Positions 3,001 through 9,000 of a DNA stretch of 64,000 nucleotides are shown piece after piece (position 1 is the stretch's first letter; each line of letters opens with the position of its first letter). The position numbers were made by a program. Where the stretch lies: assembly GCF_056712565.1 (NCBI RefSeq), contig NZ_CM160072.1. One strand, given 5' to 3'.

Positions 3001-6000
3001 GTTGCTCCCGGTAAGCGGCACGAACAACCAGCGTTGTGTGAATCATATTTCTGAACCGGATAACGAAATTCCGCCGGGCTTCAGGGGGTAAGTGTTAATT
3101 TCTGGTCATGAGGTAATTTTCAGGAGGGCTTGTGGCAAAAGTTTTTACACAAGAAGAGCGGGAAAAAATTAAAGGACAGGTTGTTGAACTCGTACGCCAG
3201 AGTGGGCGTGAGACGTTACGGCAACTGGAAGTCAAGACAGGTGCGACAAGATATCTGATGAGCGTTCTCGCAAGAGAGCTGGTTGCCAGCGGCGATGTAT
3301 GCAACTCTGGTTACGGGTTATTCCCGTCTGAACAGGCGCGTAAGGACTGGCAAAATGCCAGTAAAAAGCTCTCAAGGGCAAAGCTGAAGAAACCATCTGC
3401 GGTTGATCCGGACCTTATCTGGTCATTACCTGACGGAGAAATACGTCGCTACGACAGGCGTCAGAACATAATCTGTCGCGAGTGCCGGAAGAGTGAAGTT
3501 ATGCAGCGCATATTGTCGTTTTATCAGGGTGATGTTCGGTATTTATTGAAGTGACGAGATTAAAGTGCATTAGTTCAGATGCAAATTGACATTTTGTGGC
3601 ACAGGGTAGAGCTAGCGTGGTTGTCCGCTTTGTGCCAATAGCGGACATTGCTGGCTCATGGTATGTTAGTTTAAGGAGGCAGGTTATGCCCTGTATTTCG
3701 CTGTGGTATAATAGTTGCGCAATTGATACAAGGGAGCGTTACATCGTGAAAATTGTTTTCGAGGTTAATGGAAAGAAAGTTCCACTAAAATCTTTAAAAT
3801 ACATAAGCAAAAAAGATCAACTCGAAGTAATGAAAAACTGGTTCTTTGAAAACTTTGAAGATCCGGCAAATGCTTGTCCGTATGAAAGTAGAGAAGGTGG
3901 CTATGCTTACATATATGGCGGGCCGTATGATGCGAGCGAAGAACTACAATCCATCTTCGGTCAATATGTTAAATCTGAGTATATTGAGGAATTAGTAGAT
4001 GAATTACAAACACAATGTTTTGACTGGTCTGGAAACTCAAATAATATAGATGATTGGTACGATGATGATATCTACGACGCTGTAACGTCTTCCGGTAATC
4101 CGTATTTAAAATTCATTGATAATATCGATAAAATAAAAAAACTTGCAAAAGATAAAACTGAACAACAGCAAAAAAACCACTTGCTTAGTTTGCTCTACAC
4201 GAATGTTATTACAGCTTTGGAAACGCTTTATGTTGAGCTATTCATTAATTCTATAGAGAAAGATGATGTCTACATAGCCAATTGTATAGAAAAAGGTAAG
4301 ACTGAATTTAAAGTAAGCAAAGATATTGCTGCGTTGCCTTTCAAGGGTGAACCCATCGAGAAAATTAGGGGAGAGCTAATCAGGTCAATCAAGGAACACT
4401 TGATCAGTGCAAGCTGGCATAGCACTAAAAAGGTAATCGACCGCTATGAAGCTACATTCGATATAAAAGTACAAAAAGACTGTCCGATAGAAGCTATTGA
4501 ATTGGCAACCCTCAATCGAAATCACTTAGTGCATCGTGGTGGAAAGGATAAAGAAGGGAACCTCGTAGTGATTACAGACCAGGATCTTGAAACGCTGATT
4601 GAAAATGCATCGAACCTGGCAATTATGCTCTACAACAGTTTAAATGTAGCAACGAATAAAACCACCATTTTGCAACCAGATGACAAACCGTTCATTCATG
4701 AATTTTAATAGCGCAGGTCATACATGGATATTCGCACACGAAAGACAAAATTTTTAGAGTCGTTAGATTCAACTGAAGTGATACGCAAAGCAGTAAGTCT
4801 CGCTATAGATTGCATTATTGATAATCATAATAGTAATGAAGATACCCCCTTAGTTATTACCAGCTATGATGATCTCTGTAGAATCCAGGTGCTAAATTAT
4901 GTACAGGAGTTTTGCGAAGCTGCATTCCCTGATATGGATGAATATTACTTTAGTCCTAACATACTTCGCATCAACGGCAAGACTAGTGAAGAAGCTTGTA
5001 TTAACTTAATTAAACTCTTAAGAAGTACAAAAGGCATGCTATTCTGGTCCGATGCCCCATCGTGGTTCGCTAGCCTCCCCGACGGATTATTCCATGTTGT
5101 TAACATTGATCAAAAAATCGTTACTCGCGGCCTTAATAAGAAAAACTCTAAGCCGACAATAATCAATAAAGATTACAGTGTAGATACACTACTATCAGAG
5201 CTATTTTTGAATGGCGCACACATGGAGCAACCCAACGTACACAACGTTTCTGAGGGAAACATGAAGTTCTATGATGAATGCCATGCTGGATTAATCAGAC
5301 CAATACCCGCTCCAATAGGCGCGTCATACGATGAAGAGATCACAATTAATTCTCCAGATTGGCAAAAGCTCGCGTGTGTAGCTTTACGCCGCTATCAGTC
5401 GAAGGAATGTCATGACGGAATGCAATGGGATACAACCGATCATGGTTGGACTGATGTAATCGCGTATCCATTCGTCGAAGAAATACAATCAATGGATAAT
5501 AGTGGTTATCGACAATGTTTAGTTGGGCTGGTCACAATAAACAATTCAAATGCAAATTCTCCGTACCTATCTACCGTTTGGATACATCCATTTTATCGCA
5601 GGAGAGGGTTATTAAGTAAGTTATGGCCAAAATTACAAGAGTTATATGGAAGTAACTTCGAAATTGAGCGACCTAATGAAAATATGAAAGCATTTCTGAA
5701 AAGTGCGAAACACGCAGATTACTAATTTATGAATCAGTCTGTGGAGTTAGGGTTGGTGTCAACAAGTAGGGTAAGAGCCTCAACGTGATGCTATGCCGAC
5801 CTGCTCCCTGAGAATTCACACAGAAGGCTGCTAGCAATGTCTGCAGATCGCTCAAAGCGGACTAGAAGGTTAGCTTGCGTCGGACTTGGCGTATTTAAAG
5901 AAGTGCTGGTGGTGACTGGTTGTTGTGTTCCATTTCTACAGAACAAAATCACAGAAACTATACCCAATAGTTATATTGAATCAATGATGAGACAGCCTCA

Positions 6001-9000
6001 TATTTATCAGAACTGGTGTACGTCCAATACAGGAGGTTGTCGTGCTGGTTCTCAAATGTGCGCTAGCTATTGCGGCTGTAATGGCAATTTATTGTCTTGC
6101 TGTTGTTCTTATGGATCGCCTTTCTGATTGATTTTATATTGGCGAGGTGACGGGAGTTAAGTAGAATTGCTGCGGGTGCTTGAGGCTATCTGCCTCAGGC
6201 ATGAACACCAAAGGCAGATAGAGAAAAGCCCCAGTTAATATTACGCGTCCTGCAAGACGCTTAACATTAATCTGAGGCTCAATCTATGAACGGCAAATCT
6301 AGGTTAGCCTCTTACGTGCCGAAAGGCAAGGAGAAGCAGGCTATGAAGCAGCAAAAGGCGATGTTAATCGCCCTGATCGTCATCTGTTTAACCGTCATAG
6401 TGACGGCACTGGTAACGAGGAAAGACCTCTGCGAGGTACGAATCCGAACCGGCCAGACGGAGGTCGCTGTCTTCACAGTTTACGAACCTGAGGAGTAAGA
6501 GACCCGGCGAGGGAGAAATCCCTCGCCACCTCTGATGTGTCAGGCATCCTCAACGCACCCGCACGTAACCCGCTTCGGCGGGTTTTGTTTTTTCCTGGCA
6601 TTCTGGTTTACAATTCGCACGCCAGCCTGAACAACTGGCACCTGCTGCGCCAGCAGAGACAACCGATGGCGCACGATACCAAATTACACAATTCTGATGA
6701 TTCTGCCGTCTTTGCCAGCAGGCACGGGCGGCGTTCCCGCACTTTCAAATCTGACTGGTTCCAGCATCCCCCATGCACTGAAGAACAGGCCGAGTGGCTA
6801 ATTCAGTGCTACCGCAGACACGGATACGAGATTAAGAAAGCCCTCAGCCTCGATTATCGTCACTGGATAATCTCCGTCAGGCTTCCTTACTCCGAACGAT
6901 CACCGCGTCCGTCCCGCACATTCCAGCAACGCATCTGGAGGTAACGTGCGAGTATTACTTCGACCTGTTCTGGTACCGGAACTCGGGCTGGTGATCGTTA
7001 AGCCGGGCCGTGAATCCATGCCGGTATTCCACAATACCCGGGTACTGGTGGAGCCGGAACCGAAAAGCATGCGTAATCTGCCGTCCGGGGTTGTTCCTGC
7101 CGTTCGCCAGCCGCTAGTGGAAGACAAAACATTGCTGCCGTTTTTCAGTAACGCACGGGTGATTCGTGCTGCTGGTGGTGCTGGTGCATTGTCTGACTGG
7201 CTGTTGCGCCATATTAAATCCTGCCAGTGGCCACACGGCGATTATCATCACAGCGAAACCGTCATTCACCGTTATGGTACCGGCGCAATGGTGTTGTGCT
7301 GGCACTGCGACAACCAGCTGCGTGACCAGACATCCGAATCACTCGAGCAACTTGCTCATCAAAACCTGTCAGCATGGATGATTGACGTCATACTCCATGC
7401 AATGAATGGCTCGCAGGAACGGGAATTATCGCTGGCTGAATTATCCTGGTGGGCGGTCCGCAATCAGGTGGCGGACGCGCTACCGGAAGCGGTATTACGT
7501 CGTTCGCTGGGGTTGCGTGCGGAAAAAATCCGCTCAATGTACCGTGAAAGCGACATCGTACCGGGAGAGCAGACCGCCACCAGCATACTGAAGCAGCGCA
7601 CAAAAAATCTTGCGCCGCTGCCTCACGCCCACCAGCAAAACCCGCCACAGGAAGAGACGGTGGTCAGCATTGCCGTTGATCCTGAGTCTCCGGAATCTTT
7701 CATGAAACGACCTAAACGTCGCCGCTGGGTTAACGAGAAATACACACGCTGGGTGAAGACACAGCCGTGTGCGTGTTGTGGTAAGCCAGCCGACGATCCC
7801 CATCACCTGATTGGTCATGGTCAGGGCGGAATGGGGACAAAATCTCACGATATTTTCACGCTACCGCTGTGTCGGGAGCATCACAACGAGCTTCATGCGG
7901 ATCCTCTGGCGTTCGAAGAAAAGCATGGTTCTCAGGTTGATTTAATTTTTCGTTTTCTTGATCACGCCTTTGCAACTGGCGTGCTTGGGTAAAAGAGGTG
8001 ACTGATGCTCATAGATTTGGTTTTACCTTACCCGCCGACGGTGAACACTTACTGGCGACGCCGTGGCAGCACATATTTTATCTCGGAGGAGGGAAAGCGT
8101 TATCGCCGGGCTGTGGCGCTTATTGTTCGCCAGCAGCGGCTGAAATTAAGCCTGTCCGGAAGGCTGGCGATAAAGGTGATTGCAGAGCCACCGGATAAGC
8201 GTCGTCGCGACCTGGACAATATCCTGAAAGCACCGCTGGATGCGCTGACGCATGCGGGAGTGTTAATGGACGATGAGCAGTTTGATGAAATCAATATCGT
8301 TCGTGGTCAGCCAGTATCTGGTGGACGTATGGGGGTGAAGATTTACCCCATAATGCATGAAGAGCAGGTCAAAAAATGAAACTGGAAGATTTACCGAAAT
8401 ACTACTCCCCAAAATCCCCTGGCCTGACCGATGCATCGGCCTCAACGTCAAAAGATGCGCTGAGTATCACTGATGTGATGGCCGCGCAGGGCATGACACA
8501 GAATCGGGCTGAGATGGGGTTTTCTGCGTTCCTGGGGAAAATGGGCATCAGTATGAATGACAGGGCGCGGGCAACAGAATTACTGGCAGATTATGCACTC
8601 AGTCGGTGCGATCGTGTGGCGGCGTTGAGAAAACTTCCGGCAGAAATAAAACCGGTAGTGATGCGCATTATGGCTTCGTATGCGTTTGAAGATTATGCCC
8701 GTAGCGCGGCGAGCAAAAAACAGTGCCCTTGCTGTCACGGAAAAAAATTTATTGAAAGCGAGGTTTTTACAAACAAGATCCAGTATCCGGATGGTAAGCC
8801 ACCAGTGTGGGCAAAGTGCACAAAAGGCGTGTATCCGTCTTACTGGGAAGAATGGAAAAAAGTCAGGGAGGTGGTAAAAGTTGCCTGTCCGGAGTGTGGC
8901 GGAAAGGGTGAGGTTTCCACCGCCTGTAAGGATTGCCGTGGGCGTGGTGTCGCCATTCATCGTGAAGAGTCGGTAAAACGTGGTATGCCTGTTATCAGAG

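Follow-up and report, generated by a model that had tools for sequence, protein, structure and literature searches.

A cysteine-rich open reading frame beside a prophage hok/sok locus is very probably the shadow of an overlapping 29-codon gene for a predicted membrane microprotein

TisB, ZorO, ShoB, Ldr, and Ibs are known type I toxins, very small hydrophobic peptides with a single transmembrane (TM) segment. MgrB, AcrZ, MgtS, and CydX are small single-pass inner-membrane regulators of Escherichia coli, a group of proteins treated in reviews (for example PMC12648545). We analyzed a stretch of 64,000 nucleotides (nt) from RefSeq assembly GCF_056712565.1, contig NZ_CM160072.1 (hereafter the window, numbered from its first letter), in which a cysteine-rich open reading frame (ORF) of 96 codons precedes the hok gene of a lambdoid prophage. 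One base out of register with this frame is a 29-codon ORF, which is very likely the true coding unit and would specify a membrane microprotein starting at GTG 6042, the longer ORF being its shadow. The predicted peptide resembles the toxins of the Hok/Gef family (PF01848) in being very small, hydrophobic, single-TM, prophage-borne, and adjacent to hok/sok, but it has no Pfam or NCBIfam match at E ≤ 10 and lacks Hok's periplasmic Cys-containing tail. With MgrB, AcrZ, MgtS, and CydX it shares a length below 50 residues, one predicted TM helix containing conserved polar or aromatic residues (Tyr-Cys), and a history of being missed by standard annotation; it differs from them in showing no homology, in being prophage-borne and hok-linked, and in not belonging to a host operon. 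The locus also compares with shadow ORFs lying over real genes, in which a long frame of skewed composition results from the codons that a gene uses in a different frame. Here, however, the gene (29 codons) is far shorter than the shadow (96 codons), because the frame stays open for 68 more codons upstream.

A preliminary description of this DNA had proposed that the 96-codon ORF might encode a small secreted or modified peptide, either bacteriocin-like or metal-binding, or be a chance ORF. The ORF itself was present with a translation identical to the one quoted, including the ATG start, the Cys-dense C-terminus ending in GGCRAGSQMCASYCGCNGNLLSCCCSYGSPF, and the Cys-containing N-terminal hydrophobic stretch LACVGLGVFKEVLVVTGCCVPF. 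Inspection of the sequence likewise confirmed that ATG 5837 has no good Shine-Dalgarno (SD) sequence and that the ORF lies between an AT-rich two-gene cassette (3596..5725) and hok. Cysteines were denser than background: the last 28 codons hold 6, whereas the mean for the window is 0.95 per 28 codons (P(≥6) = 0.0016). The argument concerns the following features:

5837..6127, plus strand: Cys-rich ORF of 96 codons found by ORF scan, judged a non-gene; its last 28 codons are read as an out-of-frame shadow.
6042..6131, plus strand: small ORF of 29 codons with GTG start and TGA stop, predicted product MLVLKCALAIAAVMAIYCLAVVLMDRLSD, recognized from the ORF, its substitution pattern, and its homologues.
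6031..6036, plus strand: SD sequence AGGAGG, 5 nt upstream of GTG 6042, seen in the sequence.

Related loci were gathered by BLAST and by exact-pattern scans of IMG/VR, giving 53 distinct sequences, and were resampled with anchors that covered either the end of the small ORF (final three codons and stop) plus the hok −35 region, or the −10/SD region. The 29-codon ORF was intact in 51 of the 53 distinct sequences and, counting SD, start, and stop, in 146 of the 149 loci of the anchor-resampled set that span SD to stop. All distinct configurations matched (40/40) kept CAGGAG(G/A) with the 5-nt spacer. The 29-codon frame contained 26 synonymous and 32 non-synonymous distinct substitutions (44-45% synonymous, with 26% expected; p = 0.0014-0.002), and it scored best of the six frames for synonymous excess. 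The only other frame with an excess was the antisense frame that shares its wobble positions and is interrupted by a stop, a spurious signal of the kind also seen with shadow ORFs over real genes. Non-synonymous changes in the 29-codon frame were conservative (V/I, A/V/T, M/V/I, D/E, and L/F).

Homologues of the 29-residue peptide were retrieved by tblastn, DNA patterns, exact cluster look-ups, and a profile search. The virulence plasmid pWR100 of Shigella flexneri M90T has kept all 29 codons of the ORF, started by ATG behind an unchanged SD, although DNA identity is only 80%; compared with the window, this copy differs by 10 synonymous and 8 non-synonymous changes (ratio of non-synonymous to synonymous rates, omega, 0.16-0.19). 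The other pINV matches listed, from four Shigella species and enteroinvasive E. coli, were all 79.3% identical over all 29 residues. Against the window copy, the ratio (dN/dS) in the 29-codon frame was 0.14 for locus L190, 0.18 for locus L244, and 0.17-0.26 for a 34-residue form found in E. coli O157 and on an IncY plasmid. Between the deep lineages the proportion of synonymous differences (pS) was 0.57-0.76, near saturation, with a non-synonymous proportion (pN) of 0.14-0.35 and omega of 0.1-0.3; in the comparisons with the window copy, pWR100 included, pS was 0.36-0.72. The ORF was also intact in pWR100, L229 (where it is C-terminally extended), L244, L245, O157, and IncY, with SD-like motifs in pWR100, O157, L244, and L245. 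The synonymous excess, together with deep homologues retained at near-saturated synonymous sites, argues for a protein-coding gene under purifying selection.

The 34-residue form was reached through a weak tblastn match to the RefSeq "hypothetical protein" WP_077779993.1 on the IncY plasmid, whose counterpart in an O157:H7 prophage is WP_001278450.1 (MSDDISLAMEGALAVIAVVGVYCLVVFLMDRLGN). It shares 46-55% amino-acid identity with the 29-residue form over the TM core, a common core motif, its own AGGAGG-type SD, and the same slot, with variable cargo after the DUF977 gene on one side and the hok promoter on the other. It differs in its ATG start and 5-residue acidic N-terminal extension, in a nucleotide sequence essentially saturated at synonymous sites relative to the 29-residue form, in the approximately 60 nt with a perfect palindrome that separate ORF and hok promoter, in a second hydrophobic ORF of 27 codons preceding the 34-residue gene, and in being annotated by the Prokaryotic Genome Annotation Pipeline (PGAP), which does not annotate the shorter form. 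Searching 1.84 billion representatives with a profile returned 21 relatives, including the intermediate forms L244 and L245, whose loci were fetched; the family core, A-L-A..V..(I/V)-Y-C-L-x-V-x-L-M-(D/E)-R, was present in 16/16 sequences retrieved. By these comparisons, the peptide is a member of an uncharacterised Escherichia/Shigella family. A search of the accessible library by accession and peptide sequence of the 34-residue form found no paper, and one by peptide substrings, accessions, and topic found nothing on the 29-codon gene. The 27-codon hydrophobic ORF (MIWPEAFAITGVAIAIDFLVYVICRWG) lies just upstream of the 34-residue homologue at L243 2501-2584 (O157:H7) and L242 1365-1448 (IncY). 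In O157 its ATG overlaps the stop of a DUF551 gene (ATGA) with AGGAGG ahead, and it appears in collections as a "hypothetical protein"; the window has no counterpart.

The 96-codon frame behaved differently from the 29-codon frame in the same alignments. Homology with other E. coli genomes and phages starts at about 5848, 11 nt past ATG 5837, and this point marks where a cargo cassette, variable between genomes, joins the conserved DNA. Only 4 of the 53 distinct sequences retain the ORF with both its start and its stop, and over the whole set the open stretch ending at the shared TGA ranged from 30 to 115 codons. Between 5848 and 6041, where 42 distinct sequences from 99 loci were compared, the 140 distinct substitutions were spread 48/45/47 over the three positions of the 96-codon frame and thus showed no codon periodicity; 9 of them create stops in that frame, and deletions of 1, 2, and 14 nt shift it. 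Within the 90-nt overlap, which holds the Cys-rich part, the 96-codon frame had 11 synonymous and 46 non-synonymous substitutions (19% observed, 21% expected; p = 0.68), and between the window and pWR100 it had 1 and 16, respectively (omega ~5), with just 2 Cys left in the plasmid copy. Mutations that are conservative in the 29-codon frame turn Cys into Arg, Tyr, or Phe in the 96-codon frame at most Cys positions, leaving 2-6 cysteines among the variants, a pattern that speaks against the proposed metal-binding peptide.

The view that the frame encodes a genuine Cys-rich peptide, be it secreted, modified, or metal-binding, nonetheless has in its favor an open, ATG-started, Cys-dense frame, most of whose cysteines are retained in a few variants (for example L229 and L190), and versions of which are occasionally deposited as "hypothetical protein" in GenBank records of E. 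coli. These database proteins were sporadic, 55-152 residues long, and confined to Escherichia/Shigella; 26 of the 28 had no conserved Pfam domain, and the other two were apparent fusions to unrelated domains. RefSeq showed no annotation across this region in any row seen. Searches of Pfam, NCBIfam, and PADLOC with both the 96- and the 29-residue peptides gave no matches, and PHROGs gave only insignificant ones (E ≥ 0.2). The neighbors are DUF977, the two-gene AT-rich cargo, Hok/Gef, and DUF968, with an upstream cargo that differs in every relative examined, and a domain search found no modification, export, or immunity genes among them. With its start outside the conserved DNA, its frame interrupted in relatives, and neither SD, family match, nor biosynthetic neighbors, the ORF has next to no chance of encoding such a peptide, and the bacteriocin-like reading falls with it. 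We conclude from the sequence comparisons that the 96-codon ORF is a non-gene, whose first 68 codons appear to lack stops by chance where the frame crosses non-coding DNA and a mosaic junction. The chance-ORF alternative of the preliminary description was therefore essentially right, but incomplete in that it overlooked the putative gene at 6042..6131.

The 29-codon ORF also offers an explanation for the cysteines. It consists mostly of GCN, GTN, CTN, and ATT codons, half of which end in T, and all six Cys codons in the overlap combine the final T of one codon with the GC or GT that opens the next, an Ala or Val codon. The Cys excess of the longer frame thus arises from overlapping Ala/Val codons. 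More generally, reading N|GC and N|GT one base early would yield xGC and xGT codons (Cys, Gly, Ser, and Arg) and hence the Cys-dense tail, while further upstream the shadow frame would stay open by chance over non-coding DNA and across the mosaic junction as far as the ATG. The open frame and its Cys/Gly/Ser-rich tail may both be attributed in this way to a real hydrophobic gene sitting one base downstream. When the same peptide was encoded in simulation with synonymous codons drawn from window usage, the shadow frame had 2.05 Cys per 28 codons, double the background of 0.95, and the observed 6 Cys still fell in the upper tail (P = 0.004). We attribute the residual excess to the bias toward T-ending codons and not to selection on cysteines, since relatives lose the cysteines freely. 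Read in the corresponding shadow frame, the O157 homologue also has 6 Cys yet contains a stop, which supports the codon-bias interpretation. It follows that a short hydrophobic gene rich in Val and Ala codons can cast a long Cys/Gly/Ser-rich phantom ORF in a neighboring frame. Such phantoms enter GenBank, as the deposited versions of the 96-codon frame illustrate, and can mislead the mining of ribosomally synthesized and post-translationally modified peptides and of bacteriocins.

Signals for expression, and the non-coding DNA preceding the ORF, were located as follows:

5976..6004, plus strand: candidate sigma-70-type promoter, with −35 TTGAAT at 5976-5981, a 17-nt spacer, and −10 CATATT at 5999-6004, recognized by conservation.
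6139..6167, plus strand: hok promoter TTGGCG-17-TAGAAT, a 9/12 match found at the same position in divergent relatives.
6567..6584, plus strand: intrinsic-terminator-like hairpin with a T-run after hok, the first good one downstream of the small ORF in a scan.
5848..5969, no strand assigned: conserved non-coding block found by comparison, accompanying the small-ORF module in many but not all prophages, with its left edge (about 5848) at the junction with the cargo.

The 29-codon ORF would probably be transcribed from the weak promoter TTGAAT-17-CATATT, both hexamers and the 17-nt spacing of which were kept across 12 distinct spacers and in L245. The scanner missed this site because it matches the consensus at 8/12, below threshold. 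Read-through from the early-right operon of the prophage would also be expected from the lambdoid organization, since the ORF has the same orientation, and translation would start at GTG 6042 by way of AGGAGG 6031-6036. The hok promoter begins 8 nt past the stop of the small ORF, and a scan found no terminator between the two. A divergent promoter-like site on the minus strand (5984->5957, TTGATT-16-TATAGT) lies at the right edge of the non-coding block; it is also seen in pWR100 (CTGACT-16-TATAGT) and is missing from L229.

This arrangement could be taken to mean that the whole conserved region is a non-coding, cis-regulatory or RNA element of hok/sok, for example an upstream promoter element or a hok transcript extended at its 5' end, in which the 29-codon ORF is incidental. 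The region abuts the hok promoter with no intervening terminator, many relatives, including some with different upstream DNA, show very high nucleotide identity over the ORF, and most of the ORF is missing from many hok loci. The block at 5848..5969, which is 88-100% identical in most relatives and unrelated in others, has no coding signal in any plus-strand frame. We consider this explanation very improbable for the ORF, however, because the substitutions are codon-like in exactly the 29-codon frame, the deep homologues keep the peptide at near-saturated synonymous sites, and the ORF and its SD persist where hok is absent or deleted. Nor was there significant or covarying RNA structure over the 29-codon ORF region, and Rfam searches over 5837-6170 found no family. 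RNA structure as the basis of conservation was rejected: minimum free energy z-scores were 0.08 for a predicted hairpin enclosing SD and start, no better than shuffled sequence, and 0.61 for the minus-strand RNA, the sole strand folded for block 5848..5969, and the pairs of the weak 5' hairpin survived largely as G-U wobbles, compensatory changes being almost absent.

Several observations weigh against a 29-codon coding gene. PGAP left the ORF uncalled in every RefSeq row seen. Exact patterns inside or next to the ORF were used in part of the sampling and inflate the apparent base conservation, an effect that the anchor-based and BLAST-derived loci lessen but do not remove. Substitutions among close relatives are few, the comparison of the window with L229 fails to discriminate the frames (omega 0.42 versus 0.51), and the codon alignment for O157/IncY was made by hand on the amino-acid alignment. 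The candidate promoter matches only 8/12 positions, its −35 is lost in L079-type loci, and in L090 a junction falls within the spacer; L244 lacks the promoter, its ORF coming immediately after the preceding gene. Moreover, in 52 of the 218 loci matching a query of 5990-6175, homology begins only at about 6100-6109, which leaves the last ~6 codons, and in Stx phages such as 933W the match to the window starts at about 6154, with no part of the ORF present. The gene would thus be dispensable for phages in which it is cut to its last codons or missing. Finally, the function and the topology that we discuss for the peptide are pure inference. In the 52 truncated loci, a fossil of the ORF reading MDHLSD or MGHLSD stands beside the hok promoter, and recombination or cargo insertion has recurrently placed a junction within the 29-codon gene, in region 6101-6131.

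The product of the 29-codon ORF is most likely a single-pass inner-membrane microprotein, as predicted from its hydropathy: a stretch of 19 hydrophobic residues (CALAIAAVMAIYCLAVVLM) is flanked by K5 and D25-R26, and the grand average of hydropathy (GRAVY) is 1.81 overall and 2.55 for residues 1-24. Its orientation is not callable, because the N-termini of the 29- and 34-residue forms carry opposite charge. A lipoprotein or signal-peptide reading was rejected by eye, neither Cys of the peptide being preceded by a lipobox.

In size, hydrophobicity, and its single TM segment, the peptide resembles type I toxins, and its 29 residues, GRAVY of 1.81, and 19-residue core are in keeping with the small hydrophobic membrane peptides (<60 residues) that such systems encode. 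It could accordingly serve as toxin in another type I toxin-antitoxin system, in tandem with hok/sok and with an antisense RNA that escaped detection: the ORF is in a prophage beside a bona fide type I system, its GTG start codon is weak, and a promoter-like site on the minus strand (6160->6131, TTAACT-18-TAAAAT) faces into it. That site is not conserved in divergent relatives, however, nor does any other minus-strand promoter keep its position; the terminator scan gave none on the minus strand, and the sequence scans detected no antisense RNA signals against the ORF. A divergent small RNA of the tisB/istR or zorO/orzO kind was rejected, the only direct repeat between 5848-5969 and the mRNA that could provide complementarity being 14 nt long with 79% identity. 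The ribosome-binding site, AGGAGG at a 5-nt spacing, is strong and shows no convincing sign of sequestration, an own promoter-like site would be unexpected for an unrepressed toxin, and the peptide matches neither PF01848 nor another toxin family. A second toxin is therefore unlikely in our view, and with a strong, apparently unoccluded ribosome-binding site and no detectable antisense promoter the peptide is probably not a tightly repressed type I toxin.

For the predicted membrane microprotein we consider it about an even chance that it inserts in the inner membrane, is non-lethal, and acts through helix-helix contacts with a partner or with itself. The conserved Tyr-Cys inside the putative helix is, in our reading, the kind of feature that such contacts use. 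The partner could be a host or phage membrane protein, possibly Hok, which is the obvious candidate because of the persistent adjacency. The hok promoter lies directly downstream of the peptide ORF in four divergent lineages (the 29-residue type, L244, L245, and O157/IncY) and in most sampled copies. A more specific proposal, which we regard as decidedly improbable, would add the peptide to prophage hok/sok as a third component, a membrane helix able to modulate Hok, for example by heteromerising with it or by timing its action when the prophage is induced. If so, a heteromer of the peptide and Hok TM segments would delay, prevent, or potentiate pore formation, and the placement of an ancient peptide family directly upstream of the hok promoter in four lineages would be explained. 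Exceptions to the linkage occur. In the L091/L190 phage group the ORF is present without hok and is followed by a bidirectional terminator and a convergent gene. On the Shigella pINV plasmid pWR100 (L005 2590-2700) hok is deleted, but its promoter and ~60 nt of its leader survive beside the small ORF; this remnant ends in the AT-rich region upstream of icsP, with the stop of the ORF ~260 bp before the first in-frame ATG of the icsP ORF and 290 bp before the annotated icsP start.

The 29-residue type of DNA was found in 1,958 of 5,426 complete E. coli genomes (~36%), in some 2,240 copies, and was unannotated in every row shown, and the 34-residue type was found in a further 671 genomes (at least 80% query coverage; ~12% more of E. 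coli), including O157:H7. A scan of GTDB with one exact 27-base pattern, too specific to be informative on other genera, matched only E. albertii and two contigs of metagenome-assembled genomes. Exact-sequence look-ups showed that some GenBank records, including those of REL606 and BL21(DE3), call the peptide a "membrane protein" or "conserved hypothetical protein". The module, encoding MLVLKCTLAIVAVMAIYCLVIVLMDHLSD, is present in E. coli B, REL606, and BL21, with the peptide deposited under ACT39199.1 and ACT43394.1. Given the steady position at the hok promoter, a functional link with Hok, the best-studied type I toxin, could be examined in these ordinary laboratory strains. If there is no link to Hok, the gene would be one more uncharacterised prophage microprotein, and an ordinary one. 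The feature underlying the Cys-rich ORF is, on this evidence, modest: an uncharacterised small prophage-encoded membrane protein, as predicted, of note for its abundance, its absence from RefSeq, and its association with hok/sok. In phage HannyBb (L004 2954-3243), the small-ORF region is deposited with two "hypothetical proteins" on the minus strand, both probably spurious annotations, because the minus-strand frames carry stops or only the wobble-sharing artefact.

The remaining features of the prophage around the ORF are given below.

3596..5725, no strand assigned: AT-rich (35-40% GC) two-gene cargo cassette, recognized by GC content, in the slot between DUF977 and the small-ORF/hok module.
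6174..6348, plus strand: hok mRNA 5' leader and Sok target, a full-length match to Rfam RF01794 (113.3 bits, gathering score 59, E = 2.9e-26).
6286..6498, plus strand: mok-like ORF containing hok (hok proper 6343..6498, 51 residues), matching PF01848 HOK_GEF at 6.4e-22.

The DUF977 gene lies at 3132..3554, and hok is followed by a small hypothetical gene, DUF968, and putatively RusA (8005..8379), the last placed solely by ORF position and by the RefSeq annotation of an identical region, which calls the toxin gene hokD and continues with an antiterminator Q gene. Window positions 5700-6300 are 100% identical to E. coli FY26. In that strain (L001 3644-4172) hokD is duplicated in tandem as two identical coding sequences 373 bp apart, and the window has a single copy. 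The 370-residue product of the cassette gave sub-threshold matches to HEPN/RES N-terminal domain 1 and to the PADLOC PglX/DpdH models, and the 333-residue product gave a sub-threshold match to a GNAT acetyltransferase. Other prophages carry a restriction endonuclease, DUF5677, a QueH-like protein, HigBA, or DUF551 in the same slot, and the interval between DUF977 and hok looks like a defence or moron hotspot. Past hok, positions 6507-6588 gave a sub-threshold Rfam match to the Salmonella prophage small RNA IsrK (27.8 bits, gathering score 50, E = 0.003), which covers the 3' end of hok and the terminator hairpin.

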